Source of the DNA: a virus
Lineage: Duplodnaviria > Heunggongvirae > Uroviricota > Caudoviricetes
IMG/VR virus record: IMGVR_UViG_2645728010_000005
DNA: 17,360 nt
Direction: 5' to 3' (one strand)
Shown here one piece after another: positions 274-16,341 of the stretch. Below the pieces are notes generated by a model, which saw only the letters and a program-made list of their open reading frames with translations, made no database searches and had not been told where the DNA came from. Every line of letters starts with the position of its first letter. Position 1 is the stretch's first letter. A program made the position numbers and the translations under genes.

Positions 274-718
274 CTGCATTCGTTTCTGAGGTTTTCGCCG
301 CGTTCTTCGATGATGCCGCTGCAGTTTCGGATTTCTTTGCCGCCGCTGCGCTCTGAGAGGCGGCTTCGGCGTTGCGTGCCGCTTCTTCCACCATTGCCTC
401 AAAACGACGCAATGCCTCCGGCATGACATCATCTTCCGTCATGGCACCGAGAAAATCATTCAGCGTACCTGGTCTGGAACCTTCATAGACGGTAATGGTT
501 CCGGCATGTGAAGGCGGAAAACCTTCAACCAGCAGGGTGACGCTGTACTGGCCATGCTCAACATCCATGCTGTAACGCCCGGCTTCATCCGGATTTTCAG
601 AGGCCACCGTGTTCACCAGTACCGTGGTGCTGTTACGCTTTGCCTTCAGTTGAATAGTGCAGTTCTGTATTGGTTTTCCCGCACCATCTTTCAGCACACC
701 TGAAATCTGTACTGCCAT
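122..718 (-). pseudogene. stf: Side tail fibre Stf, N-terminal fragment only (~155 codons of Stf-like sequence, 718 down to ~274, then out-of-frame read-through to the stop at 122)
   Basis: ATG at 718..716 with SD GGAGTG upstream. Translation MAVQISGVLKDGAGKPIQNCTIQLKAKRNSTTVLVNTVASENPDEAGRYSMDV... matches the lambda Stf N-terminus as I recall it. Full-length Stf is several hundred aa longer and no tfa follows. Confidence 0.6.
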
Positions 719-733
719 ATTCACTCCACAAAT

Positions 734-758
734 AAAAAAGGCGCCATTTCTGGCGCCC
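734..758 (-). terminator. Intrinsic terminator between J and stf (tJ-like)
   Basis: Hairpin GGCGCC-atttct-GGCGCC (740..757), followed on the minus strand by a T-run (complement of aaaaaa at 734..739). Confidence 0.5.
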
Positions 759-776
759 GTATCTGGGTTATAAAAT

Positions 777-2752
777 TCAGCTAATCATGATGCCTGCAGT
801 GGCTTTCTTCATCACCACAACCAGCAAATCGCTGATACTTGCTGTGGGATACCAGCCATTTACCAGCCATGCCGATACAGAAAATTCCAGTGTCATTACA
901 CCACTGCCTGCAGGCATATCAATAACACCCGTATATATCAGCGTATTATCCAGAGCCGTTCGGTTATAAATTTCAGCACCGTTTTTTCGTACTATCAGAC
1001 GGCATGAGGAGTAGATATCAGTATGATCTTGCTCATGTTTAGCGCCACTGAATGCCACCGCCGGAATAACAATTTGCCGGTCAAACGGCTGATCGTCATA
1101 AACCCTGACGGTAATGGTCCCTGATGGCCACCGCTCCGGTGCACGGGAGTCCCGGGGGAAAGCTTTGCCCACTGTTTTAACGAGATCGCCTTCAATCTGG
1201 TTCGCGGACAGTTTTCCCAGAACCCGGCAGTTCTCGTTAATCGTGACGTTGTTGAGCGTCCCGGAGTTCGCATTCACGTTACCGCTAATATCGGCATTTT
1301 TCGCCGTCAGCCGCCCGTCCGGTGTCAGGGAAAATGCCGGAGGATTACCGCCGCTGGTAATGGTGGGAGCCGTCAGATATTTCAGGAACACTTCGTTCAT
1401 GAATATCTGATCGCCCTGACCAACAAACATCGGCTTTGTGTTGCCATTCGCAGGATTAATCATCGCAATCCTGTCCGCCGCCAGCAGCACCTGACTCTGC
1501 ATACCGTCAGGGGTATTCTCAATACCGGCACCAATACCCGCGATATAAAGGCGTCCGTCCTGCATCTGCTGCAGCTTCACAGCCCACATGCTGTTCAGGT
1601 TATTATTTGTATCAACCTGAACCTTCTGTATCTGCTGGATTGCCGCACTCTGGTCTTCCAGTTTCTTATTGACGGTCTGCGTGATTTCATTACTGACATC
1701 CGTGATGGACGTTCTGATTTCCGCCAGGTCAGGCGCAAGCTGACCGTTATCAATCTGCGTCCACAACTCCTGAGCCAGATGGGTTTTCCCTATCTCTCCT
1801 TTGAAAAAATTCAGATAGCCGGATGCATCATCACTCGGCTGGCCAACAGCCTCCACGAATGCCGATTTGCCAACGGTGTTCACACTGCGGATGTAAAAAT
1901 AATAATCATGGCCCGGTTTGATATTGATACTGGCGGCTATCCAGTACAGCGCCGTGCCAAGATAGCGTGCTGTGGTTTCAACCTGCCTGATATCCGCAAT
2001 CCGCTTTTCCGAGAACCAGAACTCAAACTGTACCGTCGGATCATAAACCGCAAGATGCGGCGTGGCGGTTATCTGAAAATACCCCGGTGTCAGCTCAATC
2101 TGCGACGGCGCTGCCGGTGCGGCAATCCGGAACGATACCGACGCCGGCTCGCCCTGCTGCCCCCACGCATTTACTGCCCGGACTGTCAGCCTGTAGTTCC
2201 CCAGAGCCAGTTGTGTGAAGCGGTAAGTGGTTTCCGTCGTCCGGGCCGTGCTGACCAGTCGCTCACGGCCGTCATCCGCTGCCACGGTCAGGCGAAGCAG
2301 GAAGCTCACGCCCTTCACCACCTTCGGCGTATCCCAGCGGGCCAGCACCTGGTATTCCCCGCTGTCTGCGGTGACTTCTGCGGTCAGGTGCTGCACCGCT
2401 GGCGGCGTGACACCATTTACCGTGCCGCTCTGGTCGCCGTCAAAGTGCGCCCCGTTATCCACGATGGCCTCTTTTTCCGGTACATGCTGCACGGCGGTGA
2501 TGGCATACGTGCCGTCGTCGTTCTCACGGATACTCACGCAGCGGAACAGGCGCTGGCGCAACGTCGGCAGCTTCAGCCCCCATATGCCGGCTTAAACGTT
2601 CCGTCCCAGATACCGCTGTATTGCCGCGTCTGCGGGTTATAGTTCGACGGCACCTGCAGAATGCGCCCGCGAAGATGATAATTACGGCTCACCTGCTGGC
2701 TGCCGAACTGCTCCGAGTCCACCTGCACGCCGACCAGTGCCGTGTTCGGGTA
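777..2752 (-). pseudogene. J: Tail tip / host-specificity protein J remnant: C-terminal ~600 codons (777..~2582, track ORF starts at a TTG) plus a ~55-codon internal J segment in a different frame (~2582..2752)
   Basis: Minus-strand ORF 777..2561 (594 aa) contains [45 protein letters not shown]... and downstream blocks typical of lambda J (fibronectin-like region, [20 protein letters not shown]). A second minus-strand frame over 2583..2752 reads [57 protein letters not shown], which matches a more N-terminal part of J. Lambda J is ~1130 aa. Confidence 0.7.
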
Positions 2753-3257
2753 TCAGTTCATCCAGCGCGGCTGCTTTGTTCATGGCTTTGATGATATCCC
2801 GTTTCAGGAAATCAACATGTCGGTTTTCCAGTTCCGGAAAACGCCGCTGCACCGACAGGGGGATCCCGTCGAGAATACTGGCAATTTCACCTGCGATCCG
2901 CGACAGCACGAAAGTACAGAATGCGGTTTCCACCACTTCAGCGGAGTCTCTGGCATTTTTCAGCTCCTGTGCGTCGGCCTGCGCACGCGTAAGTCGATGG
3001 CGTTCGTACTCAATAGTCCCTGGCTGGAGATCTGTCTCGCTGGCCTGCCGCAGTTCTTCAACTTCCCGGCGCAGCTTTTCGTTCTCAATTTCAGCATCCC
3101 TTTCGGCATACCATCTTATAACGGCGGCAGAGTCATAAAGCACCTCATTACCCTTGCCACCGCCTCGCAGAACGGGCATTCCCTGTTCCTGCCAGTTCTG
3201 AATGGTACGGATACTCGCACCGAAAATGTCAGCCAGCTGCTTTTTGTTGACTTCCAT
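2682..3257 (-). CDS. nohD: Terminase small subunit Nu1 homolog, Nu1-like for ~170 codons then 21 unrelated codons (J-derived sequence read out of frame)
   Basis: ATG at 3257. Translation MEVNKKQLADIFGASIRTIQNWQEQGMPVLRGGGKGNEVLYDSAAV... is near-identical to lambda Nu1 up to ...AALDELIP, then diverges (EHGTGRRAGGLGAVRQPAGEP). Confidence 0.8.
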   Translation of the reverse strand: MEVNKKQLADIFGASIRTIQNWQEQGMPVLRGGGKGNEVLYDSAAVIRWYAERDAEIENEKLRREVEELRQASETDLQPGTIEYERHRLTRAQADAQELKNARDSAEVVETAFCTFVLSRIAGEIASILDGIPLSVQRRFPELENRHVDFLKRDIIKAMNKAAALDELIPEHGTGRRAGGLGAVRQPAGEP

Positions 3258-3460
3258 TGTTCATTCCACGGCCAAAAACAGAGAAAGGAAACGACAGAGG
3301 CCCAAAAGCTCGTTTTCAGCACCTGTCGTTTCCTTTCTTTTCAGGGGGTATTTTAAATAAAAACATTAAGTTACGACGAAGAAGAACGGAAATGCCTTAA
3401 ACCGGAAAATTTTCATAAATAGCGAAAACCCGCGAGGTCGCCGCCCCGTAACCTGTCGGA
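3258..3460 (-). other. cos site: cosN cohesive-end sequence GGGCGGCGACCT (complement of 3435..3446), with the cosB region between it and the Nu1 start
   Basis: The reverse complement of 3258..3446 reads GGGCGGCGACCTCGCGGGTTTTCGCTATTTATGAAAATTTTCCGG... and continues into the Nu1 ATG, as at the lambda left end. The sequence to the right of 3446 reads like the lambda right end. Confidence 0.75.
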
Positions 3461-3645
3461 TCGCCGGAAAGGACCCGCAAAATGATAATAATTATCATCT
3501 ACATGTCACAACGTGCATCTACGCCATCAAACCACGTCAAATAATCAATTATGACGCAGGTATCGTATTAATTGATCTGCATCAACTTAACGTAAAAACA
3601 ACTTCAGACAATACAAATCAGCGACACTGAATACGGGGCAACCTC

Positions 3646-3840
3646 ATGTCAACTAAGAACAGAACCCGCAGAACAACAACCCGCAACATCCGCTTTCCTA
3701 ACCAAATGATTGAACAAATTAACATCGCTCTTGAGCAAAAAGGGTCTGGGAATTTCTCAGCCTGGGTCATTGAAGCCTGCCGTCGGAGACTAACGTCAGA
3801 AAAGAGAGCATATACATCAATCCAGAGTGATGATGAATAA
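3646..3840 (+). CDS. Small conserved lambdoid right-end protein (64 aa), possibly DUF3950 / ribbon-helix-helix-like
   Basis: ATG 3646, 64 codons, MSTKNRTRRTTTRNIRFPNQMIEQINIALEQKGSGNFSAWVIEACRRRL... I recall an almost identical small orf between bor and cos in lambda-like phages; its function is unknown to me. Confidence 0.5.
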   Translation: MSTKNRTRRTTTRNIRFPNQMIEQINIALEQKGSGNFSAWVIEACRRRLTSEKRAYTSIQSDDE

Positions 3841-3937
3841 ACATCCCGGTTTCTTCCACCATCGCACCGGAAAAGCGACTATGAGGGTAACCCTGCGTCT
3901 GTCAGCACAGTAAAACCCGGTGTGCATCGTTTTTGAT

Positions 3938-4002
3938 TATTCCCGCACACTCACGCAGAAGGAATTCCCCGTCGGGCTACGGTCATGGTTAATGCGGGAA
4001 TA
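3938..4002. repeat. 10-bp perfect inverted repeat TATTCCCGCA (3938..3947) / TGCGGGAATA (3993..4002) with a 45-bp spacer, upstream of bor
   Basis: Read directly from the sequence; lies in the non-coding stretch 3841..4200. Confidence 0.6.
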
Positions 4003-4200
4003 CGGCGACGATACAGCGCAGCTAAAAGGGTAATGGACAGAAAGAGCGGTTTATTTCATTCCACAGGATTCTGAGTGCCCCCCCTCCTCCAATAGGCTGA
4101 GCATCCACCTATATAGTTTTAATTTTCATCAATCCATTTAACTATCGTTTAATTGTTGTCACATAGGATTCTGCCGTTTTTAACAATGCAGGATAATAAG

Positions 4201-4494
4201 ATGAAAAAAATGTTGTTTTCTGCCGCTCTGGCAATGCTTATTACAGGATGTGCTCAACAGACGTTTACTGTTGGAAACAAACCGACAGCAGTAACACCAA
4301 AGGAAACCATCACCCATCACTTCTTCGTTTCGGGAATTGGACAGGAGAAAACTGTTGATGCAGCCAAAATTTGTGGCGGCGCAGAAAATGTTGTTAAAAC
4401 AGAAACCCAGCAAACATTCGTAAATGGATTGCTCGGTTTTATTACTTTAGGCATTTATACTCCGCTGGAAGCGCGTGTGTATTGCTCACAATAA
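4201..4494 (+). CDS. bor: Bor lipoprotein (serum-resistance, lysogenic-conversion protein)
   Basis: ATG 4201 with AGGA upstream; 97 aa MKKMLFSAALAMLITGCAQQTFTV... with lipobox LITGC. Near-identical to lambda Bor; opposite strand to the lysis genes, as in lambda. Confidence 0.9.
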   Translation: MKKMLFSAALAMLITGCAQQTFTVGNKPTAVTPKETITHHFFVSGIGQEKTVDAAKICGGAENVVKTETQQTFVNGLLGFITLGIYTPLEARVYCSQ

Positions 4495-4525
4495 TTGCAT
4501 GAGTTGCCCATCGATATGGGCAGCT

Positions 4526-4987
4526 CTATCTGCACTGCTCATTAATATACTTCTGGGTTCCTTCCAGTTGTTTTTGCATAGTGATCAGCCTCTCTCTGAG
4601 GGTGAAATAATCCCGTTCAGCGGTGTCTGCCAGTCGGGGGGAGGCTGCATTATCCACGCCGGAGGCGGTGGTGGCTTCACGCACTGACTGACAGACTGCT
4701 TTGATGTGCAACCGACGACGACCAGCGGCAACATCATCACGCAGAGCATCATTTTCAGCTTTCGCATTAGCTAACTCCTTCGTGTATTTTTCATCCAGTG
4801 CAGCAACATCACGCTGGCGCATCTGCATGTCAGTAATTGCCGCGTTCGCCAGCTTCAGTTCTCTGGCATTTTTGTCGCGCTGGGCTTTGTAGGTAATGGC
4901 GTTATCACGGTAATGATTAACAGCCCATGACAGGCAGACGATGATGCAGATAACCAGAGCGGAGATAATCGCGGTTACTCTGTTCAT
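4526..4987 (-). CDS. rzpD: Spanin, inner-membrane subunit Rz (i-spanin)
   Basis: [55 protein letters not shown]..., 153 aa with an N-terminal TM helix. The ATG overlaps the endolysin stop (ATGA). Confidence 0.85.
4585..4767 (-). CDS. rzoD: Spanin, outer-membrane lipoprotein subunit Rz1 (o-spanin), embedded in the +1 frame of Rz
   Basis: 60 aa [24 protein letters not shown]... with lipobox VVGC and a proline-rich core ([15 protein letters not shown]); lies entirely inside Rz. Confidence 0.8.
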
Positions 4988-5481
4988 TGCTGACCCCACA
5001 AACAGATTTCACGCTCAATCTCACGACGAGTCATGAGACCTTTCCATTGCTTACCGCCAGCATATGTCCAGCGACGTAGCTGATCACATGCGCCTTTGAT
5101 ATCGCCCTGGTTTATTTTGCGAAGAAGCGTCGATGTTCTGAAATTGCCAGCGCCCACGTTGTAAACGAACGAGTAAAGAGCGCCGCGCGTTGTTTCCGGT
5201 ATATCAACTTTTATGTACGGGTTAATTTGTCTGGCGACCGTGGCAAGGTCTTTATTCAGGAGGGCTTTGCATTCTGCTTTGGTATACGTTTTACCGAGCA
5301 TGATGTCTTTTCCTGTATGCCCGTGACATACAGTCCATACACCAACAATATCTTTGTATGGTATGTAGCTGACACCTTCCAGACCATCGTTACCACTTGG
5401 GCCAGTGATTAACACTGATGCTATAGCAATTGCTCCGCCACCAATAGCAGCAGCAACGGCTTTTCGTAATGATGGAGGCAT
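4984..5481 (-). CDS. rrrD: SAR endolysin (phage 21 R-type lysozyme with N-terminal signal-anchor-release domain)
   Basis: 165 aa; the N-terminus [27 protein letters not shown] is a weakly hydrophobic Gly/Ala-rich SAR segment, followed by a lysozyme-like body. Matches DLP12 RrrD / phage 21 R as I recall them. Confidence 0.9.
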
Positions 5482-5696
5482 TATTCACCTCTCGCAGCCT
5501 TGCGCTTATCTTCTTTAATCTTGAAATAAAGGTTTGTCAGGTACGTCAGCAGGCCAAATACCAGGCTACCCAGCACACCTATTGCTGCCCACTGTGAGGG
5601 CGTGACTTTATCGAGCAGCTGTAAAAACCAGTAACCGGCACTACCTGCTGAGGTGCCATAGGCGACACCCGTTGTTAACTTATCCATGGATTTCAT
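5481..5696 (-). CDS. essD: Class II holin / pinholin (phage 21 S-type) with dual-start motif M-K-S-M
   Basis: ATG 5696 with SD GAGGTG; 71 aa [71 protein letters not shown] with two TM segments. The track ORF start at 5741 is a TTG extension. Confidence 0.85.
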
Positions 5697-5911
5697 AACC
5701 CCACCTCGCAGACAAAGCGGGTGTAAATTGAGGGAATACAACGTATCGCAAAAAAGCAGAAACGTAACAGACTCGGAGTCAGTGAATAACTCAGGTATTG
5801 AGTTATCAGCTAATATCGAGACTCAAAAAATGGAAAAACCAGCTCGACGGCGGGTTTAAGCTGTGTGACGAAGTAACCACTCTTAACAGCATAACCAATT
5901 TTTTACGTACG

Positions 5912-6048
5912 TAAACCACTGAATGATATTTATGAGAATGCTACCGAGTGTTCAAAACACCACCACAAATATATAAGAAAACCTCAACAAATAACCAATA
6001 AATAATTTCCGGCGTTATTTTTAGTTGATTTAAATTAAACCACTGAAT
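5912..6048. repeat. 13-bp direct repeat TAAACCACTGAAT at 5912..5924 and 6036..6048 in the AT-rich porin upstream region
   Basis: Read directly from the sequence; both copies lie in the non-coding region 5742..6284. Confidence 0.6.
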
Positions 6049-6918
6049 TATAGAACCCCCATAAATAACAGCCATTAATATAAATTAGCTAATAGGTTTA
6101 TTTTTGTTCAAATAAGAGCCATAAATAGGTTTCGATAGAAAAAGTTCAGATAAAAATAGAGATCTACTTCACAAATTAAATGAGAAACTAAAACTTACAT
6201 CTTGAAATAATCACATTGATTAGATGAATATTTATCGCGCAGTGACATCATTTTTTAATAATAGTTCAAAAAAAAGGGCTCACGATGAAAAAATTAACAG
6301 TGGCAATTTCTGCTGTAGCTGCATCAGTACTGATGGCGATGTCTGCTCAGGCAGCTGAAATTTATAATAAAGACAGTAACAAGCTGGATCTGTACGGGAA
6401 AGTTAATGCCAAGCACTACTTTTCCTCTAACGATGCAGATGATGGTGATACTACTTATGCCCGTCTTGGCTTCAAAGGTGAAACCCAAATCAACGATCAA
6501 CTGACTGGTTTCGGTCAGTGGGAATATGAATTCAAAGGCAACCGCGCTGAATCTCAAGGTTCCTCCAAAGACAAAACCCGTCTTGCATTTGCAGGCCTGA
6601 AATTCGGTGACTACGGCTCAATCGATTACGGCCGTAACTACGGTGTAGCATACGACATCGGTGCGTGGACTGACGTTCTGCCAGAATTCGGTGGCGATAC
6701 CTGGACCCAAACAGATGTGTTCATGACTGGTCGCACCACTGGTGTTGCAACCTATCGTAACAACGACTTCTTTGGTCTGGTCGATGGCCTGAACTTTGCT
6801 GCTCAGTATCAGGGTAAAAATGACCGCACTGACGTAACTGAAGCCAATGGTGATGGTTTCGGTGGTGATGCTGCCAACTTACTGATTTAGTGTATGATGG
6901 TGTTTTTGAGGTGCTCCA

Positions 6919-7194
6919 GTGGCTTCTGTTTCTATCAGCTGTCCCTCCTGTTCAGCTACTGACGGGGTGGTGCGTAACGGCAAAAGCACCGCCGGACATC
7001 AGCGCTATCTCTGCTCTCACTGCCGTAAAACATGGCAACTGCAGTTCACTTACACCGCTTCTCAACCCGGTACGCACCAGAAAATCATTGATATGGCCAT
7101 GAATGGCGTTGGATGCCGGGCAACTGCCCGCATTATGGGCGTTGGCCTCAACACGATTTTACGTCACTTAAAAAACTCAGGCCGCAGTCGGTAA
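6919..7194 (+). CDS. insA: IS1 InsA (transposition inhibitor / N-terminal part of the transposase)
   Basis: 91 aa [43 protein letters not shown]... with a zinc-finger CxxC...CxxC; canonical InsA. Confidence 0.9.
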
Positions 7195-7616
7195 CCTCGC
7201 GCATACAGCCGGGCAGTGACGTCATCGTCTGCGCGGAAATGGACGAACAGTGGGGCTATGTCGGGGCTAAATCGCGCCAGCGCTGGCTGTTTTACGCGTA
7301 TGACAGGCTCCGGAAGACGGTTGTTGCGCACGTATTCGGTGAACGCACTATGGCGACGCTGGGGCGTCTTATGAGCCTGCTGTCACCCTTTGACGTGGTG
7401 ATATGGATGACGGATGGCTGGCCGCTGTATGAATCCCGCCTGAAGGGAAAGCTGCACGTAATCAGCAAGCGATATACGCAGCGAATTGAGCGGCATAACC
7501 TGAATCTGAGGCAGCACCTGGCACGGCTGGGACGGAAGTCGCTGTCGTTCTCAAAATCGGTGGAGCTGCATGACAAAGTCATCGGGCATTATCTGAACAT
7601 AAAACACTATCAATAA
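7113..7616 (+). CDS. insB: IS1 InsB reading frame (expressed as the InsAB' transposase by -1 frameshift)
   Basis: 167 aa ...[28 protein letters not shown]...; canonical InsB, overlapping insA in the -1 frame. Confidence 0.85.
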
Positions 7617-8153
7617 GTTGGAGTCATTACCGGTTTCGGTTTCTCCACTACTTATGAGTATGAAGGATTCGGCGTGGGTGCAACCTATGCTAAATCAGAT
7701 CGCACTGACGGTCAGGTCGCCTATGGTAAGAGCAAATTCAATGCCTCCGGCAAAAATGCGGAAGTATGGGCTGCAGGCCTGAAATATGATGCGAACAATA
7801 TCTATCTGGCTACCACATATTCTGAAACTCAGAATATGACCGTTTTTGGTAATAACCATATTGCAAACAAAGCACAAAACTTTGAAGCAGTAGCACAATA
7901 TCAGTTTGACTTCGGTCTGCGACCATCTGTTGCTTACCTTCAGTCAAAAGGTAAAGACCTTGGTGTTCATGGTGACCGAGACTTAGTCAAGTATGTCGAT
8001 GTCGGTGCTACTTACTACTTTAATAAAAACATGTCCACTTTTGTTGATTACAAAATCAACTTAATTGACGATAGTAAGTTTACCAAAACAGCTGGTATTG
8101 ATACCGACGACATCGTCGCTGTAGGTCTGGTGTATCAGTTCTAATCTGATTAC

Positions 8154-8194
8154 GAAAAAGATATGTTGCGGGAGGCTTTGCCTCCCCAACATAT
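8154..8194 (-). terminator. Intrinsic terminator on the minus strand (candidate tR' of the late leader); its hairpin also sits 17 bp after the porin stop on the plus strand
   Basis: Stem ATATGTTG-(C)-GGGAGGC / GCCTCCC-CAACATAT (8161..8194, loop ttt), followed on the minus strand by CTTTTT (complement of 8155..8159). Confidence 0.5.
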
Positions 8195-8282
8195 AAGTGG
8201 CTCCCTCAAGCCACTTCCTTTAGAAGCACAACCTTGCTTCTAACTATATAAACCTTCTGTTATATATTACCCTTTATTTTTG

Positions 8283-8316
8283 GGGGCGTCTCAACGCCCC
8301 ATTTTTAATAATTTTT
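8283..8316 (+). terminator. Plus-strand intrinsic terminator
   Basis: GGGGCGT-ctca-ACGCCCC hairpin (8283..8300) followed by ATTTTTAATAATTTTT. Confidence 0.4.
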
Positions 8317-8333
8317 AGTAAACAATTGGCATA

Positions 8334-8717
8334 TTAATTAGAGTTATTAACAACGATATCCATCTCTAACCGGATATCTAATGCCATTAACATCCCTTCA
8401 ATTATGCCCTCAGCCTTCTGTAACCTTTTCCCGATATAACCATCAGAGCAGCAATGCTTACCTGCCAGTGACATGAATGTCATACCGACTACATAATAAT
8501 CTACTAATAAATCATGCAAATCGCTGTTGTTCTTTTTCAGACGGGCCATGCACCCGCAAATGATCATCGCGTCATCGTCACAACATTGTGGGCGAGATTT
8601 TACTTTTGAAGGAATTAATCCCTTAAAACCGGCGGCAATGGACGACCAGGTCACATCTTCATGATTATTAGCCGCCCACGCTCCCCAACGCTCAAGAACC
8701 ATCTGAATATCACGCAT
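8334..8717 (-). CDS. quuD: Late-gene antiterminator Q (short, DLP12 QuuD-like)
   Basis: ATG 8717; 127 aa [24 protein letters not shown]... with a Cys-rich zinc-binding region ([16 protein letters not shown]). The track ORF has a 5-codon upstream extension. Confidence 0.85.
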
Positions 8718-8802
8718 CAACTTACTCCACAAAACTCAGACCAGAACGCCAATTACAAGCAAAAATCAACAAAACAGTATTAGTTGATTGTTATCTCTGA
8801 CT

Positions 8803-8925
8803 TCATACTCCTGCTCCTGTCAGTGTTTTGGCGTAATTCTTCAGTATTCGGTAATCGGTCAAAACAGAACCGGGGAAACGATATAAGCGCAGGCGCATCC
8901 AGCGGTGGCGAAGAAGTTCTGCCAT
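8803..8925 (-). CDS. Small basic ORF between rusA and Q (ylcG-like), 40 aa
   Basis: ATG 8925, MAELLRHRWMRLRLYRFPGSVLTDYRILKNYAKTLTGAGV, stop TGA 8803..8805. Position corresponds to ylcG in DLP12; coding status is uncertain. Confidence 0.35.
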   Translation of the reverse strand: MAELLRHRWMRLRLYRFPGSVLTDYRILKNYAKTLTGAGV

Positions 8926-8939
8926 ATAAAACTCAAACA

Positions 8940-9302
8940 TCATTCATCTCCCTGTTCAGTGATGGTCAGTTCCAGCTTTCCACCTTTGACAACCGGCATC
9001 TTCACAACGCGGTAATCAACGACCTGAGCATCATCCAGCCAGAAACCTGCTTTGGTGAGTGCGTCAAAAGCGGCCTTTTGTAGATTATCCAGGTCACGGC
9101 GACGGCGATCCGGCATGTGACACTCAATGCGGATTTTCACAGGCATAGCCAGGCCGATATCCAGCATTGCGTTTTTAATGATTCGGGCGACGTTTTCGCG
9201 GTATGCCTGCCCCTCTGCGCTGATGTGCGTGCGCCCGCGATTATGGCGGTAATAGCGATTATTGCTCGGCGGCCAGGGTAATGTGATATTGTAGGTATTC
9301 AC
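8940..9302 (-). CDS. rusA: RusA Holliday-junction resolvase
   Basis: 120 aa (GTG start) [50 protein letters not shown]...; matches E. coli RusA. Confidence 0.9.
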
Positions 9303-9589
9303 GCCTTAATTACCCCCTCTTTCAGCCAGATAACCTGCGTTCTCGCCATACCTTCCAGCGCGCATTCTTTTGCATATCCAGCGTCAACAAAATGCGTGCG
9401 ACGGTCGATCTCGTCGTGACAGGCAGAACATGCAATGGTGGCAATCAGGTCTGGCGGTTTGATACCGGTACCGCACAATCCAGCCAGCCGGATATGTGCC
9501 AGTACAGACGTTTCAGGATTGCCATTACATACGCCAGGGATTCTTACCTGGCATTCCCGACCACGCGCTGCTTTTCTCAAATCAGCCAT
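9299..9589 (-). CDS. ybcO: YbcO-family protein (DUF1364, putative nuclease of the nin region)
   Basis: ATG 9589 with SD AAGGAGG; 96 aa [42 protein letters not shown]... The track ORF has a 13-codon upstream extension. Confidence 0.7.
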
Positions 9590-9752
9590 GATTCCTCCTT
9601 GCTGCCAGTCGCAACCATTTTTTATCAACCAGGCTGGCGGTATATCCGAGCAGTGTTGGTATTTCGGATGGTTTCAGCTCAGGCTTACGCTTACGACGAT
9701 TTGGTACTTTGTAGATGTGTCCGTTCATGACACGAATAAGCGGTGTAGCCAT
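9582..9752 (-). CDS. ninE: NinE-like small protein (56 aa)
   Basis: Below the track threshold. ATG 9752..9750 with SD AGGAGG, overlapping the ybcN stop (TAATG); [56 protein letters not shown]; stop overlaps the ybcO start. Confidence 0.6.
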   Translation of the reverse strand: MATPLIRVMNGHIYKVPNRRKRKPELKPSEIPTLLGYTASLVDKKWLRLAARRNHG

Positions 9753-10207
9753 TACGCCTCCTGCTTATCACGCAGCAGCTGGAACTCGCAGCTCTGCGGA
9801 ATAGTCAGGTGGCAGCCAATATTCATCGCCCAGGCTTCAACCTTACACAGGAAGACATACATCTCTCCGGTATCAAGGTCGGAGGTATGGCGTAACGACT
9901 GGATAGTGGTGATATCACCGGTTACGACATCAACCAGGTCTTTGGTTTCATAACCGAGATATGTGTGTTTGAGAGCATCTTTTACCCAAGCTGGAGTGGC
10001 GAACGTTTTACCCCTGCTGATGAGGTATTCACTGATTTCGCTGTACCACATGTGGCTGAGTGCATTCTGGGAAAGACTGCGTTTCTCACGCCACGGTTTA
10101 AGCACCATGCGAAAGCATTTGCCCTCCTCCAGATAAGGCTGGATCTGCCGACCGATAGCGGTGAAGTTGCCGCGATGTAATTTGATGCCGTCTTGTGAGA
10201 GGTTCAC
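9752..10207 (-). CDS. ybcN: NinB-like recombination protein (DUF1367, YbcN)
   Basis: 151 aa, GTG start preceded by GGAGGTG; contains ...[23 protein letters not shown]..., resembling the NinB family. Confidence 0.75.
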
Positions 10208-10305
10208 GCTTCACCTCCGCAGAGGTCAAACGCTAGATGCAAAGAATTGCAGGTGCATTTCTGCATCTGTGAAGGGAGAAGAGAGTTTGGATTGTATGTG
10301 CGCAT
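10204..10305 (-). CDS. Small ORF (33 aa) between ybcM and ybcN, ylcH-like
   Basis: ATG 10305, [33 protein letters not shown]; its stop overlaps the ybcN start. Coding status is uncertain. Confidence 0.3.
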
Positions 10306-10421
10306 AAACGTCCCCGTTTAGCGCAGAAGTCACCGGAGTTGTTCAGGCTCCGGTGACATAATTATGCCGTGTTGATTTCCCAAAATCAAAATCGATAGAA
10401 TTGCTCCTTCTTAAAACACTT

Positions 10422-11219
10422 TTACTCTCTGGAAGCTTTTCTTATCTCTCTTGGTGTTATATTAAAACGATTATGAAATCTTTCAGTAAAACGAGAAGGA
10501 CACTTATAACCATTTTCTCTGGCAATCTCGCTTATAGGTTTTACCGTCGTTTGTATAGCAGACAACGCATTATTTAACCTCACATCGTCCAGTATACTTT
10601 GGAAACTTACCCCCTCGCTTGCTAGACGGCGATGTAATGTAGAAACAGAAATGTAGAGATATCGAGCAACCTTGTTTGCTGTCCATTTTGTGCCGGGTTC
10701 GGATAGCAGCAGGTTATAACAACGACTTATCAATGATTGTTTACTATATGATAAAAGTAAATGATTAACATGATTCACTCCTAACGAAAGTAGAACGCCC
10801 ATTGCTAAGTGCTCCTGAATTTTAGTTGAGAAGCCTCGGGAAACAGATGTTTTTAGTTGCTCCCAACAATATATTAACTCAGGATTCTGAGGTAAAAAGA
10901 AACTTGTTTTGTTACGTATTTGATCAGTTACCGTATAAAGTTTTTGGAAACTCTCAATTAAATCAATGGGTAAGTAAAGCATTTCTGCAAGATAAAGCCC
11001 TGCTTCAGGATAATTCTCAATATAAAATTCATAACCACAAGGAAATAATATTATTTGATTATTATCAACAGTTAAAGTATGCGTCTCCCAATTGATAACT
11101 TTCTTTCCCTGACGGATACGACACAAAGCTGGCATAAGAGGCTTAACCCTATGAATCTCATGATGTTTATGCATCCGTATTTCTTCGATCTTTAAGTTAG
11201 TCTTACCTCTTGCCAGCAT
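10422..11219 (-). CDS. ybcM: AraC/XylS-family transcriptional regulator
   Basis: 265 aa; C-terminal dual-HTH AraC signature (...[42 protein letters not shown]...[21 protein letters not shown]). Confidence 0.85.
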
Positions 11220-11228
11220 ACTCTCACC

Positions 11229-11780
11229 CTACTTTATCTCATAAACTGGTGTTATCTCAGCGGTTGCGATTTTATTAGCATTAAGCATATAACCAACTAA
11301 CGCTCCGCTGGAGTTAGAATCTACAGGAATCTTTTCAGTTTTTAGAGCCCATACTTTAAACTGGTAATGATGTGGTTTATCTCCTTTAGGAGGACATGCG
11401 CCACCAAACCCAGCATAGCCAAAATCATTTCGGCCTTGAACAGCACCAGTCGGCAGTTTTGTTCCATCACGTCTCCCTGCATCAACGGGCAAATATGTTA
11501 CTGTTGCTGGAATATTAACAACAGTCCAATGCCACCAACCACTGCCTGTAGGTGCATCTGGATCATATACAGTTACGGCAAAGCTTTTGGTACCTTCAGG
11601 AACACCAGACCAGGTTAATGAGGGCGATGTATTACCACCTTCACACCCAAATCCAGAAAAGACATGAGACGTTGTAAGTTGCTCTCCTGTTTTTATTTCA
11701 TTACTAGTGACCTGAAATGCTGCAGCCTGCGCAGAAAATGTTATGAATGCCAATACAGTTGAAACGATAAGTGTTTTCAT
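11229..11780 (-). CDS. ybcL: Periplasmic PEBP/RKIP-family protein (YbhB/YbcL, UPF0098)
   Basis: 183 aa with signal peptide MKTLIVSTVLAFITFSAQAAA and PEBP motifs (DPDAP...GWWHW...HHYQFKVWAL). Confidence 0.85.
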   Translation of the reverse strand: MKTLIVSTVLAFITFSAQAAAFQVTSNEIKTGEQLTTSHVFSGFGCEGGNTSPSLTWSGVPEGTKSFAVTVYDPDAPTGSGWWHWTVVNIPATVTYLPVDAGRRDGTKLPTGAVQGRNDFGYAGFGGACPPKGDKPHHYQFKVWALKTEKIPVDSNSSGALVGYMLNANKIATAEITPVYEIK

Positions 11781-11996
11781 AAAAACCTCTTTGTTATGAC
11801 CTATCGTTATTTTATTTGATATTCCTTTATCTCATTATGCATAAAGGCGCAATGTTCATGCAAAAGCAATCACAATTGTACCCCCAACCCAATTATTTGC
11901 CACAATATACACAAAGCACATTGATACTATCTAAAAACTCTGCTTTATTATTAGTAATACCTACGAAAGTCGGTGTTATTTTTTAACCTACCATTC

Positions 11997-12046
11997 AAAA
12001 TACGTGACATACACCATTTTGCTCATAATAATTTGTCACGTATTTT
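11997..12046. repeat. 13-bp perfect inverted repeat AAAATACGTGACA (11997..12009) / TGTCACGTATTTT (12034..12046) with a 24-bp spacer
   Basis: Read directly from the sequence; lies in the ybcK-ybcL intergenic region about 200 bp below the ybcK stop. Confidence 0.65.
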
Positions 12047-12244
12047 CAGTATTTGAATCTGCGACCAAGAGTTCTCACCTAACAAATGATTAAGATTGTA
12101 TAGCTCATTTACTACCCCAATACAGCCGTACAAAACTCGCTTGTGGGAGCAAACAAAGTAATTACCCATTAAGTTTCGTTAAAGATAATTAATTCTGTCT
12201 TGCACTTTATCACCATAGCATAACTTAAAATCCGAGATCATTAT

Positions 12245-13771
12245 TTAGAAATAAATCTCACCATCAACCATATATTTGAGAGCACTTATCGCCTGCTGGG
12301 CGGATATTACTTTCATTAAAGGATAGTGTTTAAAAACAATGCCATTCATAAAATAGATATCACAGGTTTTATTATCCGTATTAATTATGATTTTTTCGAA
12401 TGTTTTATAGGCAAGTGTACGGCATAACTCTCGTCCATTTTTACTGGTTAAGTCAATAGCATAAAAATCACTGAATGAATTTACACCTTTACTCTTCAAA
12501 GTTTTCAATGATACCGAAGCCCTTCGTAATTCCTTATCTAATAGTCTTATTTTCTCTGCTATAGCGGTAACTTCAGGCGCGACAGACAATGCAACGATTA
12601 AATTATTAATTTTCATCTGAAGCTCAATAATTTTTAACTCTAAAGTTTCATTAGCATCTTTCTTGTTTTCAACTGGTTGAATTTTGCTACAATTAAAAAG
12701 CAATTCATTAATGATATTATAATCAACCAAATCTCTTTTTATTGATGGCCTGTCACATCGATGTAATCTTCTCATCGGACAAACATAATAGCCATGCAAA
12801 CTTCCAGATACCGCATGAACAATCATGGTATTACCACAAGCCTCACACTTCATAACTGTTCGAAGTAGATTTATTAGCATAGGATTCTTGCTACTATTGC
12901 TAATACCAAAAGGTGCCAACCGAATTTCCTGTACAGCGTAAAACAAATCATCTGATATGACTCTGGGATAATAGCCAGCGATTTCACTTATCCCTTTCCC
13001 TCTTGCACGATATGAAGGTACGCATATACCTATCAGAGCTTTATTCGCTAATAATTTTTCAATTACAGAAGGTCCCCATGCACTTTCTTTTCCTGAGAAA
13101 TTCTTTACAGCATGATCATTTAAATACTTGGCTATTGCATTCAATGAGCGCCTTTCCATCCTGAGTTTAAAAATTAGCTCAATAGTTTTCACCCTGTCGG
13201 GGTCTGGAACAAAAGCCGTTCTTTTGTCATCTAAGGAGAGCCATCTCGGACAAGACGCCGTCATAATCGTACCTGATTCCAGTGCATCCTGCCGTTTTTT
13301 CTTCCATGATAATTTAACCCGACTTGACTTTATCTCGCTTTCTTCATTTGCCCTTTGTGCTATAAGTATGGCTTTTATTAATGAATATGGCTCATTCAAA
13401 GAGTCAATATTATAGACTGTATTGTCGCAAAGAGTTATAACATCAATACCGTGATTCAAAATCAATTTCAGACGTTCAATCGCTTCACCGACTTTTTCTC
13501 TTGAAAGTCTGTCCAGACTTTCAACTAACAATGTAGTTCCTGGCAATATATAACCATGCTCTATAGCATCTAAAAATTCCGAAAAAGCTCCTGATTGTGC
13601 ATGCTTTCCTTTGAATGCACTTAATCCTAAATCTTCATATGTTATGGTATCAAGATAATAATCACTATTTACCTTTAACCATTCAGCAATAAGTCTTCTC
13701 TGTCGGTTTAATGAGTCGCCAGACATCTGACCTGGTGATGAAAATCGCATATATGCTATGGCTTTTTTCAT
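12245..13771 (-). CDS. ybcK: Large serine recombinase (resolvase-like catalytic domain, recombinase domain, Cys-rich zinc-ribbon region)
   Basis: 508 aa; N-terminus MKKAIAYMRFSSPGQ carries the catalytic-serine motif of serine recombinases; Cys cluster CEACGNTMIVH...YYVCPMRRLHRCDRP; coiled-coil-like C-terminal region. Confidence 0.85.
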   Translation of the reverse strand: MKKAIAYMRFSSPGQMSGDSLNRQRRLIAEWLKVNSDYYLDTITYEDLGLSAFKGKHAQSGAFSEFLDAIEHGYILPGTTLLVESLDRLSREKVGEAIERLKLILNHGIDVITLCDNTVYNIDSLNEPYSLIKAILIAQRANEESEIKSSRVKLSWKKKRQDALESGTIMTASCPRWLSLDDKRTAFVPDPDRVKTIELIFKLRMERRSLNAIAKYLNDHAVKNFSGKESAWGPSVIEKLLANKALIGICVPSYRARGKGISEIAGYYPRVISDDLFYAVQEIRLAPFGISNSSKNPMLINLLRTVMKCEACGNTMIVHAVSGSLHGYYVCPMRRLHRCDRPSIKRDLVDYNIINELLFNCSKIQPVENKKDANETLELKIIELQMKINNLIVALSVAPEVTAIAEKIRLLDKELRRASVSLKTLKSKGVNSFSDFYAIDLTSKNGRELCRTLAYKTFEKIIINTDNKTCDIYFMNGIVFKHYPLMKVISAQQAISALKYMVDGEIYF

Positions 13772-13950
13772 GGTGACACCTGCTAACGTATGCTTTTATA
13801 AACCTTAGTGGTGGGATATAATTTTTGTTTAATTTTTATTTAAAAAGACAATTAAGGTCACATTATCTTGAATATACAACAATAATCGTATTGCAATTTT
13901 CTTACGCCATAATCTTGAAAGCACAAAAGAATACATAAAAAATAAAGACA

Positions 13951-13996
13951 TTAACAAAAAGCATAAAACGAGGCTCATATAAATATAAGAGCCTCC
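13951..13996 (-). terminator. Putative intrinsic terminator downstream of emrE
   Basis: Stem GAGGCTC/GAGCCTC (13970..13976 / 13989..13995) with a 12-nt AT loop, followed on the minus strand by a T-rich run (GTTTTATGCTTTTTG). Confidence 0.35.
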
Positions 13997-14025
13997 ATAT
14001 TTTAGTCGTTTAGAAACAAATTATT

Positions 14026-14358
14026 TTAATGTGGTGTGCTTCGTGACAATAAATTAATAACCAACACACCGGCACAAATCAACATCATGCCTATAATGGC
14101 TGGCAGGTCCAGCCGTTGGCCGAAAAATCCCCATAACAGTAAGCTAATCAGGACAATACCGACTCCTGACCAGATACCATAAGCAATCCCTGTAGGAATA
14201 TAAGCCAGCGTCTGAGCTAATAACCAGAATGATGCACAATAACAAATAATTGTACCAACAGATGGCCATAACCGTGTAAAACCTTCTGAAAACTTCATTA
14301 AGGTTGTACCAATGACCTCTGCAAGTATTGCACCACCAAGATAAATATAAGGGTTCAT
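14026..14358 (-). CDS. emrE: EmrE small multidrug resistance (SMR) efflux transporter
   Basis: ATG 14358; 110 aa MNPYIYLGGAILAEVIGTTLMKFSEGFTRLWPSVGTIICYCASFWLLAQTLAYIPTGIAYGIWSGVGIVLISLL..., four TM helices with the conserved membrane Glu14. The track ORF has an 18-codon upstream extension. Confidence 0.95.
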   Translation of the reverse strand: MNPYIYLGGAILAEVIGTTLMKFSEGFTRLWPSVGTIICYCASFWLLAQTLAYIPTGIAYGIWSGVGIVLISLLLWGFFGQRLDLPAIIGMMLICAGVLVINLLSRSTPH

Positions 14359-14697
14359 AGCATATTCTTTCCTGTTCAAACTGGAGAGAATTGTACTACA
14401 GTTTGAACTCAACTCACCTGTTTCATCATTGTGTTCCCATTGATGTTCTTTTATATACCCTCAGTACCCGTTTCATCGCGGCACTCTGGCGACACTCCTT
14501 AAAAATCAGATTCGTGCTCACCTTTCCTTCCCGTTCTTCTCTGGTAGCGAACCGGTAATACACCGTTCGCCAGACCTTACCATCAACGACCAGGATTCCT
14601 GCCCGCGCCATTTTAGCCGCAGCCTGATTTATGCTGGTTACGGTTGCACCTGTTGGCCCGCATGTTCTGGTACAAGTTGGTAACCAACCAGTAAGCA

Positions 14698-15063
14698 ATG
14701 GGATATGCCTCTGGTTATGTCTGGTTGAATCCACCATACAGCAATATTTCCCCTTTTGTGAAAAAGGCAGCCACTGAAAACAAATTCAGCAGTGTGGGAT
14801 GTGTAATGTTATTACCTGCTGACACATCTGTCGGATGGTTTCATGAAGCGATACAAACCGCCAGTGAGGTCAGATTCATCACGGCAGGACGACTGGCATT
14901 TATTAACCCACTCACCGGGAAACACGTCAGTGGAAATAATAAAGGCTCGATGCTCATTATCTGGCACCCATACCCCCGTACACACTGCCACTTTACGACC
15001 GTTGATCGTGGAGAGTTGATGGCGTTCGGCTCAAGGATTCTTGCCCGTCGGGAGGCTGCATGA
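14698..15063 (+). pseudogene. Phage Dam-type N6-adenine DNA methyltransferase, probably a 5'-truncated remnant
   Basis: 121 aa MGYASGYVWLNPPYSNISPFVKKAATENKFSSVGCVMLLPADTSVGWFHEA...; the NPPY catalytic motif sits at residues 11..14 and an in-frame TAA lies 4 nt upstream of the ATG. In the phage Dam family as I recall it, about 60 aa precede this motif. Confidence 0.5.
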
Positions 15064-15139
15064 CAACCACGGAATGCATTTTTCTGGCAGCGGGCTTCAT
15101 ATTCTGTGTGCTTATGCTTGCCGACATGGGACTTGTTCA

Positions 15140-15355
15140 ATGACACCTCAGCAGGAAAACGCCCTTCGCAGCATAGCCCGTCAGGCTAATTCTGAAATCA
15201 AAAAAGCCAGACAGCAGTTTCCGGATAAAAACGTCGATGACATTTGCCGTAGCGTACTGAAGAAGCACCGCGAAACGGTAACGCTGATGGGATTCACACC
15301 GACTCATTTAAGCCTGGCGATCGGCATGTTAAACGGCGTCTTTAAGGAGCGATGA
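15140..15355 (+). CDS. Hypothetical small early-left phage protein (71 aa from ATG 15140; the track ORF starts at 15041)
   Basis: Open frame MTPQQENALRSIARQANSEIKKARQQFPDKNVDDICRSVLKKHRETVTLMGFTPTHLSLAIGMLNGVFKER; start site uncertain; no family recognised. Confidence 0.3.
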   Translation: MTPQQENALRSIARQANSEIKKARQQFPDKNVDDICRSVLKKHRETVTLMGFTPTHLSLAIGMLNGVFKER

Positions 15356-15453
15356 ACATGAAAAGCAAAATCATCAGGGAGCTACAGGCTCCTTTTTTAT
15401 TATTCGCATTCACCCTCAAGCGTATTAACCAACAATTCAGGGATTAATGGAAG

Positions 15454-15672
15454 ATGGCAGACATCATTGATTCAGCATCAGAAATCGAAGAATTACAGCG
15501 CAATACAGCAATAAAAATGCGTCGTCTGAACCACCAGGTTATATCTGCCACTCATTGTTGTGAGTGTGGCGATCCCATAGATGAACGAAGACGCCTGGCC
15601 GTTCAGGGTTGTCGGACTTGTGCAAGCTGCCAGGAGGAGATCGAACTTAAGAACAAACAATGGGGATTGTGA
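15454..15672 (+). CDS. TraR/DksA-family C4 zinc-finger protein (phage-encoded)
   Basis: 72 aa with two CxxC pairs (HCCECGDPID...GCRTCASCQ) at TraR-like spacing. Confidence 0.6.
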   Translation: MADIIDSASEIEELQRNTAIKMRRLNHQVISATHCCECGDPIDERRRLAVQGCRTCASCQEEIELKNKQWGL

Positions 15673-15719
15673 TGGCCTCAAAGCAGCAAATTTCAACATC
15701 GTCCAACTGAGGTGTAAAA

Positions 15720-15998
15720 ATGTTCAGAATCATTTTGCCTAACACCTGGTACGTCGACCACCACGGCACTCCCTGCAAAATCCTGCGTTCTACCCACAAC
15801 AAAGTTCACTACATCCGAAAAGGCAGAACATGTATCGCCAGCATGTTCCGCTTTAATCATGACTTTGAACCTGTGAATAAAGCTGATGCAGATCGGATAG
15901 CAGAAGAGATCGAAACGGCAGAACACATTAAGAAGTTACGTGACATGCGTTCAAAAAGCAGAGGTAACCATGGAATCATACAGCCTCACACTCGATGA
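15720..15998 (+). CDS. Hypothetical early-left phage protein (92 aa)
   Basis: ATG 15720 with SD GAGGTG; MFRIILPNTWYVDHHGTPCKILRSTHNKVHYIRKGRTCIASMFRFNHDFEPVNKADADRIAEEIETAEHIKKLRD...; no family recognised with confidence. Confidence 0.4.
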   Translation: MFRIILPNTWYVDHHGTPCKILRSTHNKVHYIRKGRTCIASMFRFNHDFEPVNKADADRIAEEIETAEHIKKLRDMRSKSRGNHGIIQPHTR

Positions 15999-16341
15999 GG
16001 CCTGTCAGTTTCTTAAGATATCCAGACCAACCGCCACCAACTGGATACGAACAGGCCGCCTACAGGCAACACGTAAAGATCCAACCAAGCCAAAATCTCC
16101 TTACCTCACAACACGGCAAGCCTGCATTGCGGCGCTTCAGTCTCCGCTGCATACTGTCCAGGTGAGCGCGGGTGATGGCATAACAGAGGAAAGAAAATGT
16201 CACTCTTCCGCAGAAATGAAATATGGTATGCCTCGTATTCGCTCCCGGGCGGGAAACGAATTAAGGAATCTCTTGGCACAAAGGACAAGCGGCAAGCTCA
16301 GGAGTTGCACGACAAGCGAAAAGCAGAACTCTGGCGAGTAG
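15970..16341 (+). CDS. xis: Excisionase / AlpA-like HTH DNA-binding protein (extent uncertain; overlaps the integrase start by ~145 nt)
   Basis: ATG 15970 with SD GAGGT; N-terminus [36 protein letters not shown] is a typical AlpA/Xis-type HTH; the C-terminal ~45 codons overlap int in another frame. Confidence 0.5.

Follow-up and report, generated by a model that had tools for sequence, protein, structure and literature searches.

Gene map of the prophage and its Q gene

The stretch of DNA analysed here, the 17,360-nucleotide virus record IMGVR_UViG_2645728010_000005 (the window), is DLP12, the defective lambdoid prophage that Escherichia coli B carries at argU. Our subject is its late-gene antiterminator gene, quuD (Q), together with the lysis genes downstream. 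The window matches positions 533908–551267 of the E. coli B/BL21(DE3) chromosome (NC_012971.2) at 100% in reverse orientation. The tRNA-Arg gene argU adjoins intD, the genes follow the order emrE...quuD...essD, and identity to DLP12 of K-12 MG1655 is 99.0–99.8% across int and the segment from emrE to Q. Rfam and tRNA scans gave no matches. That DLP12 is missing its immunity region, that its nin genes are quiescent and that its lysis cassette is under the control of Q, RpoE and Hha is already known from published work. What is added here are the base-pair-level scars of the B copy, the evidence for independent loss of the early region in K-12 and in B, the position of a porin gene between Q and the late promoter PR′, and the allele of the terminator tR′.

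On the minus strand, read from high to low coordinates, RefSeq gives ren′, emrE, ylcJ, ybcK, ybcL, ybcM, ylcH, ybcN, ninE, ybcO, rusA, ylcG and quuD. Beyond quuD comes a porin gene that is read from the other strand and is interrupted by IS1, followed by essD, rrrD, rzpD, a small-terminase gene and tail-gene fragments. Right of ren′, the plus strand carries a truncated Dam methylase gene, three small genes, an excisionase-like open reading frame (ORF) and intD. The coordinates of these features are collected in Table 1.

The preliminary description of this DNA had taken Q and the lysis genes to be retained, and this is borne out. The RefSeq boundaries of quuD are exactly 8334–8717, and the gene sits between the nin region and the lysis genes, with rusA-ylcG-quuD and, further on, essD-rrrD-rzpD all on the minus strand. 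QuuD aligns with Pfam PF06530 over positions 1–118 of 118 (E = 8.5e-54; 181 bits, where the cutoff is 26), with phrog_79, ‘anti-termination protein Q-like’ (E = 5.4e-54), and with the solved Q21 chains 6p18/6jnx over residues 8–87 (E = 7.6e-8). It is 79% identical to Q of phage 933W over 125 residues. It is identical to Q of phage PhiR70_1 at 127 of 127 residues and to Q of phages 434B and PhiR30_1 at 126 of 127; in this group of phages a Q of 127 residues is the norm. Because the Pfam match is complete and the protein is nearly identical to Q of complete phage genomes, quuD, judged by its sequence, is not a pseudogene.

The lysis genes essD, rrrD, rzpD and Rz1 are likewise all present, and give Pfam matches to Phage_holin_2_1, Phage_lysozyme, Phage_lysis and Rz1. 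EssD is identical at 71 of 71 residues to the holin of PhiR70_1, PhiR30_1 and 434B, while RrrD and RzpD match their 434B counterparts at 164 of 165 and 145 of 153 residues, respectively.

For the K-12 DLP12 Q, antitermination activity is attributed to Rueggeberg 2013 where that study is cited in PMC7918800. The genome of phage 434B (OL657227.1) bears on the same question: positions 216–4948 of the fetched stretch are 100% identical to K-12 DLP12 over 4.7 kb, a segment that opens in ylcG, takes in Q, nmpC::IS5, S and R, and closes at the end of Rz. In the 434B record a region of 434 nonhomology is annotated, the crossover lying within ylcG and an IS5 in the porin gene. This identity points to a phage that grows on the Q-to-lysis segment of DLP12, which is consistent with an active QuuD. 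Growth on such a segment resembles the classical qsr′ substitutions.

Table 1. Features of the DLP12 window of E. coli B (positions are those of the whole window)
Feature	Position	Strand	Basis
quuD, intact late-gene antiterminator gene of the Q21/Q933W family, 127 aa	8334–8717	−	RefSeq; Pfam PF06530
Gene P internal remnant, 42 bp	14653–14694	−	100% to PhiR70_1 P (fetched positions 9569–9610); tblastn
ren pseudogene, first 25 codons gone	14426–14653	−	annotation; tblastn with Ren residues 26–100 of PhiR70_1, 100% identity
Dam-type methyltransferase pseudogene, C-terminal 122 of 185 residues left	14695–15063	+	Pfam Dam 60–168/169; 98% to PhiR30_1 Dam residues 64–185
Lysis cassette: essD 5481–5696 (phage 21 S-type holin), rrrD 4984–5481 (endolysin), rzpD 4526–4987, embedded Rz1 ORF 4585–4767	4526–5696	−	
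PR′ homolog: −35 TTTACG 5915–5910, 16-bp spacer, −10 TATGCT 5893–5888, 13-mer TAAGAGTGGTTAC 5885–5873	5873–5915	−	alignment
tR′ homolog AAACCCGCCGTCGAGCTGGTTTTTCCATTTTTT (AAACCCGCCG...TTTTT)	5825–5857	−	alignment; folding
Published lysis-operon start, +1 at ∼6236; sigma-E-like GAACT 6267–6263, 16-nt spacer, TCACT 6245–6241	6236–6267	−	primer mapping; sequence reading
Porin gene (nmpC/lc type), convergent to Q, split by IS1A 6864–7631	6285–8144	+	annotation; Pfam Porin_1, IS1 transposase
Hairpin cluster between convergent quuD and porin	8153–8300	both	folding; terminator scan
nin-region string ylcH, ybcN (NinB-like), ninE, ybcO, rusA, ylcG	8803–10305	−	annotation; Pfam
Stable hairpin GUCACCGGAG...CUCCGGUGAC with tail UUCUGCGCU (poor U-tract), between ybcM and nin genes	10320–10357	−	folding
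Sigma-70 promoter-like site TTGATT-17 nt-CATAAT, 9 of 12 matches, immediately upstream of the hairpin; candidate weak promoter for nin-Q	10361–10389	−	consensus scan
AT-rich cargo (moron) block: ybcM (AraC-type), ybcL (PEBP), ybcK (large serine recombinase), ylcJ, emrE	10422–14358	−	annotation; Pfam
Remaining left arm: orf61-like, TraR/DksA-like, DUF4222, excisionase-like ORF 15940–16341, intD 16197–17360	15140–17360	+	annotation; PHROG; 99.1% to PhiR30_1

Deletion scars in place of the immunity and replication genes

Every stop-to-stop segment of at least 35 residues in the six frames of the whole window (244 segments) was scanned against Pfam. The Q-to-int half gave 21 families, all of which were listed; for the rest of the window the best 25 of 27 were listed, the last with E = 0.0073. 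No cI/Cro-type repressor, N, cII, O, P, DnaB/DnaC-type loader or antirepressor family was among the matches listed, and the sole helix-turn-helix matches listed were YbcM (AraC type), an excisionase-like HTH_17 beside int, and InsA of IS1. The same segments were scanned against PHROG (best 25 of 49 families), supplemented by a PHROG scan of the small ORFs and by tblastn. No immunity regulator was found by the PHROG scan among the small and unannotated ORFs, and tblastn with N, cI, cro, cII, cIII, rexA/B, O, exo, bet, gam and kil of lambda, PhiR30_1 and PhiR70_1 gave nothing significant in the window. The tblastn matches were limited to residues 144–167 of P (E = 3e-5; window 14711–14652), 26–100 of Ren and 64–185 of Dam. 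The P remnant, a scrap of 24 residues, is the sole immunity or replication homolog that these searches recognised in the window. Apart from this 42-bp scrap, the earlier statement that no repressor, Cro, N, O or P can be recognised therefore holds. The two findings that the preliminary description had named as speaking against its view, a repressor or antirepressor homolog that had been missed or a decayed Q, were not made.

A search of the ren′/Dam′ region against phage genomes split cleanly at the junction and led to two complete genomes, PhiR70_1 (PV340577.1, host E. coli C) and PhiR30_1. No paper on the PhiR phages was found, and their viability is taken from the GenBank records (complete genomes, host E. 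coli C). From the porin gene through ren (window 7632–14654), the window is colinear with PhiR70_1 over 7,023 bp at 97.8% identity. From the middle of Dam to int (window 14693–17360), it matches PhiR30_1 at 99.1%.

By its blastn breakpoints, the junction at 14693/14694 is a deletion of 7,424 bp relative to PhiR30_1. Through it Dam lost its 5′ end and P its 5′ part, and with them went orf60a, exo, bet, gam, kil, two unnamed genes, cI, cro, cII and O; the middle of P was thereby joined to the middle of the Dam gene, which was once part of the leftward (pL) operon. The junction at 14653/14654 is a second deletion, of 272 bp, in which P lost its 3′ end and ren its start. Judging from the gene order, the early promoters pL and pR and any N/nut system would have been lost with the deleted genes. 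A chromosome from an E. coli strain labelled C (CP029371) has the same Dam′/P′ junction yet retains a full-length ren and 246 bp of P. This intermediate state places the 272-bp deletion later than the 7.4-kb deletion.

The K-12 MG1655 copy, which is behind nearly all published work on rusA, Q, RpoE, Hha and outer-membrane vesicles in connection with DLP12, is like the B copy in its argU/intD site and its emrE-to-nohD order, with 99.0% identity over window 8103–14639 (porin end to ren) and 99.8% in int. It also lacks cI, cro, N and O while keeping Q and the lysis cassette. The scars, however, differ. In K-12, int is followed by 306 bp spanning the 3′ end of exo and then by 399 bp of P plus ren, with 312 bp of P retained and IS3 splitting an otherwise full-length ren, whereas in B the order is int...Dam′, 42 bp of P, and ren′. 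Neither pair of endpoints can be derived from the other, which indicates that the early region, with its immunity and replication module, was lost independently in the two lineages. Increases in DLP12 copy number (‘escape replication’) have been reported in K-12 derivatives (PMC11551753); the K-12 prophage has no O gene, the site of the lambda origin, and just a fragment of P.

The preliminary description had found only emrE, ybcK, ybcL and ybcM between the integrase side and the nin region, and had placed these cargo genes in the position of the immunity region. Neither point survives closer comparison. The interval also contains ylcJ, ren′, P′, Dam′ and the orf61-like, TraR/DksA-like, DUF4222 and excisionase-like ORFs. 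In PhiR70_1, exo-bet-gam-kil-cI-cro-cII-O-P-ren is followed by emrE-ybcK-ybcL-ybcM-ybcN-ninE-ybcO-rusA-ylcG-Q-porin-S-R-Rz. This complete phage has the same cargo between ren and ninB and yet keeps cI, cro, cII, O and P, so that these genes are ordinary morons and no substitute for the immunity region, the loss of which is marked by the separate scar at 14653–14694. Phages of the PA-2, PhiR70_1, PhiR30_1 and 434B type share with the window ren, cargo, a ninB-like gene, ninE, ybcO, rusA, ylcG, Q, the opposite-strand porin, PR′-tR′, S, R and Rz. Complete PA-2-type phages differ in that the interval from Dam/orf60a to ren holds exo, bet, gam, kil, cI, cro, cII, O and P, and in that their porin gene, 434B excepted, is uninterrupted.

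The cargo block and the porin–holin intergenic region have a GC content of 31–39%, and the backbone ∼50%. PADLOC identified no defence system in the cargo. In PhiR30_1 the slot between ren and ninB holds other cargo, an acyltransferase gene and a lipoprotein gene (10665–12167, corresponding to window 10391–14466). The slot resembles a hot spot for moron insertion, bounded by the hairpin between ybcM and the nin genes that is considered below.

At the other end of the left arm, the ORF at 15940–16341 matches the excisionase family phrog_2907 over positions 2–117 of 117 (E = 5e-46; match at window 15901–16338). RefSeq annotates just a 66-bp helix-turn-helix fragment here (15970–16035), and intD, as annotated, starts ∼145 bp inside the ORF. 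In B, DLP12 may still encode a complete Xis, unlike K-12 xisD.

The two copies also differ at the right end of the prophage, which is the left end of the window, where B lacks appY and ompT and keeps fragments of tail genes. Window positions 1–2748 have no counterpart in K-12 DLP12; they contain fragments of tail-tip J (777–2585) and of the N-terminal part of a tail fibre (355–718), and a partial Phage_GPD-like ORF (1–270). The first gene outside the window at this end is cusS, and the appY-ompT-envY segment that follows the DLP12 tail genes in K-12 is absent in B. Deficiency in ompT is well known for B strains, and the missing segment fits with this.

The probable late promoter and terminator downstream of quuD

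A Q cassette runs from the Q gene to PR′, which carries a Q-binding element, then to a pause element that depends on sigma-70, and on through a terminator to the late genes; having loaded on the polymerase paused there, Q forms a nozzle at the RNA exit channel and blocks formation of the terminator hairpin (bioRxiv 10.1101/651190). Directly downstream of quuD we found no homolog of the 933W PR′, so the Q-adjacent PR′ and terminator of the cassette of Yin et al. are missing from this position. What follows quuD is a cluster of hairpins. On the minus strand there are three in tandem, the last followed by CUUUUUCG (fold 8262–8150, −48.1 kcal/mol, z score (z) −5.9). On the plus strand, GGGGCGTCTCAACGCCCC is followed by ATTTTT, with a terminator call at 8283–8300. 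The cluster, which the 3′ end of the convergent porin gene shares, is likely to be a two-way terminator region that ends the Q-carrying transcript. The segment 8333–8150 was also considered as the site of PR′-tR′ directly after Q, and was rejected in that role; the homolog of the 933W/H-19B module was found upstream of essD instead. In the K-12 literature, an rrnB terminator placed between quuD and nmpC gave no measurable change in downstream read-out (PMC11677980), which speaks for low native transcription of the nin string.

The porin gene that faces quuD is colinear with the intact PhiR70_1 porin on both sides of IS1A, and the insertion is flanked by a 9-bp target duplication (6855–6863 and 7632–7640). 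In K-12 the gene is split by IS5 at another site, and the porin was therefore inactivated independently in K-12 and B. Over the late region the two copies are just 93% identical, and over the 3′ part of the porin 78%.

The PR′-tR′ homolog (5915–5825) lies 130–220 bp upstream of the essD start codon. When the window was aligned with 933W, H-19B, PA-2, 434B, PhiR70_1 and PhiR30_1, the module was conserved in all seven and the 13-mer TAAGAGTGGTTAC was invariant, so the late genes are preceded here by a conserved homolog of the 933W/H-19B promoter and terminator. We infer that the region of the 13-mer is the Q loading site, and the module is the predicted target of Q. It is present in 2,493 of 5,426 complete E. 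coli genomes. Candidate repeats for a Q-binding element are AGTGGTTTAC, which overlaps the −35, and AGTGGTTAC (5881–5873); no clear −10-like pause element could be assigned. An exact 13-mer, ATTCAGTGGTTTA, occurs twice on the minus strand of the porin–holin intergenic region, at 6048–6036 and 5924–5912 (124 bp apart), and its second copy overlaps the −35 of PR′. These copies and the related AGTGGTTAC, which falls within the invariant 13-mer directly beyond the −10, may be subsites for Q binding or what is left of a duplication.

The late switch of 933W and H-19B is homologous to that of the window in promoter, 13-mer and terminator but differs in its arrangement. The 933W record has a putative pR′ overlapping the end of Q, with tR′ ∼60 bp further on. 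In these two phages the module either overlaps Q at its 3′ end or lies right against it, and tRNA and stx genes come next, whereas in the window it is 2.4 kb from Q (1.65 kb without IS1) and lies beyond the convergent porin gene. QuuD also lacks the last ∼20 residues of Q933W. Phage 21 offers a more distant comparison: Q21 (162 residues, compared with 127) belongs to the same Pfam family and is significantly similar to QuuD over residues 8–87, and the same mechanism is presumed, with a Q-binding element at PR′, a sigma-70-paused RNA polymerase and a nozzle.

In phage Lambda_ev203 (1978–2110), a QuuD homolog with 87.5% nucleotide identity over the first 360 nt is followed by the promoter-like GGTTATCAT and a strong terminator. 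This phage, compared as a relative with no porin gene, also lacks the invariant TAAGAGTGGTTAC, so its support is partial. The C-terminus of Q and the module downstream may co-vary.

A second start for the lysis operon has been published. The primer Pdlp12Fw (‘−121’) maps to 6357–6338, and the primer pair gives 771 bp in K-12, matching the published ‘−121 to +650’ fragment. This mapping puts the +1 at ∼6236, 540 nt upstream of essD. The sequence upstream of it resembles a sigma-E promoter, in agreement with the title of Rueggeberg 2015. Both starts, PR′ and ∼6236, are upstream of tR′. As cited in PMC7918800, the K-12 lysis operon has as its regulators Q of DLP12 (Rueggeberg 2013), RpoE (Rueggeberg 2015) and Hha, and Hha binding within DLP12 has been reported (PMC2408971).

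Transcription reaching Q and control of the lysis cassette

Within the nin string the start and stop codons overlap or abut, and an 85-bp gap (8718–8802) precedes quuD; folding of this gap gave no stable structure (z +1.06). Upstream of the string, the hairpin at 10357–10329 has a 10-bp GC-rich stem (−18.3 kcal/mol, z −5.3). In lambda, the gap between ren and ninB folds into a classical terminator hairpin (tR2), and the hairpin in the window occupies the same position. It belongs to the phage backbone, because the homology to PhiR30_1, which carries other cargo, extends to 10391.

Two deletions removed the early region and, taking the scars and the late module together, we think it probable that Q is silent by default with no repressor acting on it, and that the lysis cassette idles at a low basal level. 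Q would need no repressor because pR together with N, its only strong source of transcription, appears to have been deleted. Residual transcription would be weak, would come from cargo or cryptic promoters and would have to pass the hairpin at the tR2 position. It probably also faces Rho and silencing by H-NS/Hha; DLP12 has been said to be under Rho control (PMC11551753), and Ragunathan 2023 does not mention DLP12. By analogy with Q21, when Q is low most polymerase starting from PR′ or from the sigma-E-type promoter would stop at tR′, leaving the lysis cassette at its basal level. If Q were supplied, it would load on the polymerase paused at PR′ and take the enzyme past tR′ into essD-rrrD-rzpD/rzoD. 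The analysis shows what the element is, which genes are missing, where the scars and the PR′-tR′ homolog lie, and that Q and the lysis genes are intact; how strong the residual promoters are, how efficiently the two terminators work and how much Q is made are the inferred parts of this account. The preliminary description had asked what keeps Q silent. Its premise was sound in that the immunity genes are truly gone, but a silencer is likely not needed once pR, N and nut have been deleted.

Several points weigh against this account. The nearly silent state of Q is drawn from the K-12 literature and from sequence features, and the Q-knockout phenotypes in K-12 (Rueggeberg 2013, as cited in PMC7918800) imply that some Q is made. 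The hairpin at the tR2 position has no good U-tract and is a candidate terminator. Sigma-70-like sites are no commoner than chance would give (23 found, 25.2 expected), so that no promoter for Q can be named or excluded. The assignment of PR′ leans on a 933W promoter that is annotated merely as ‘putative’. Finally, the tR′ allele of the window is a weakened one, which may make the cassette less reliant on Q than it is in K-12.

The first alternative is that cargo promoters, those of the ybcL-ybcM operon or of emrE/ybcK, feed Q by read-through, the cargo block serving as the de facto early promoter of the late switch. From emrE to quuD all genes are on one strand, ybcL and ybcM are only 9 bp apart, and the closely spaced nin genes run up to an unstructured gap. 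In the cargo gaps the terminator scan called no canonical intrinsic terminator on the minus strand, the U-tract of the ybcM–ylcH hairpin is poor, and the published knockout phenotypes cited above likewise imply some expression of Q. Read-through from ybcM into Q, which had been proposed in the preliminary description, is therefore physically possible to the extent that the genes share a strand, and read-through from ybcLM is a possible source of a basal level of Q. However, the intervening hairpin is very stable, stands at the position of lambda tR2 and is kept in a phage with other cargo. The rusA gene stands in the nin string two places upstream of quuD, and the K-12 copy is reported to be normally quiescent, becoming active when an upstream IS2 or IS10 insertion supplies a promoter (PMC1636454). 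Moreover, complete relatives carry the same cargo, and because their late genes must await pR and N, strong read-through from the cargo would harm the phage. We consider it unlikely that the cargo block drives the switch.

We are equally doubtful that the lysis cassette is effectively Q-independent in B, with Q a bystander and the genes served by the sigma-E-type promoter at ∼6236, by PR′ read-through of a weak tR′, or by both. This alternative draws on the tR′ stem, where position 5841 is T in the window and in PA-2 and G in K-12, PhiR70_1 and PhiR30_1. The T allele folds with −6.7 kcal/mol (z −0.65), compared with −12.0 kcal/mol (z −3.0) for the G allele and −14.9 kcal/mol for 933W, and the change removes the canonical hairpin. 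The sigma-E-like promoter also coincides with the published +1, and regulation by RpoE has been published for K-12, as cited. Yet the T allele also occurs in phage PA-2 and, going by 676 records of at least 99% identity, in many E. coli genomes, and is thus compatible with a switch that works through Q. In the T allele a different hairpin, of 6 bp and with a U-run after it, can still form, and Q-dependence is reported, in the same citing source, for the K-12 copy, where the module is otherwise shared.

A regulator of a non-canonical kind encoded in the window might instead repress Q or the late operon. The AraC-type YbcM, for which no regulon was ever characterised (PMC10057817), the TraR/DksA-like protein and the excisionase-like helix-turn-helix protein are the only candidates left for binding DNA or RNA polymerase. 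All three, however, are also found in complete phages with a cI and a cro of their own, all three fall outside the repressor and antirepressor families, and once pR is gone the anatomy requires no repressor; such a role is highly improbable. That Q has decayed and there is nothing to silence is effectively refuted, since although QuuD has 127 residues where Q21 has 162 and Q933W 144, and its C-terminus diverges after residue 120, it matches the Pfam family from end to end and is the same protein as Q of PhiR70_1 and, but for one residue, of 434B.

Silence of Q by default, following the loss of the early region, thus remains our preferred explanation. The experiments that the preliminary description had proposed have, as far as the K-12 literature is represented in the sources cited here, largely been published already for the K-12 copy.

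A wider possibility, which we offer tentatively and think rather improbable, is domestication of the Q-lysis unit, which the host would control as a module for envelope stress or peptidoglycan turnover and which would be kept by selection rather than being a decaying leftover. It is suggested by the apparently independent loss of the early module in K-12 and B, which was stepwise in the B lineage, while Q, PR′-tR′ and the lysis genes have stayed phage-identical and a sigma-E-type promoter would feed the cassette. If this were true, the weakened tR′ of the B/PA-2 allele would make the unit partly Q-independent. Users of BL21 may note that the strain carries an intact and potentially lethal Q-lysis switch, and anything that drives transcription into quuD could trigger it.

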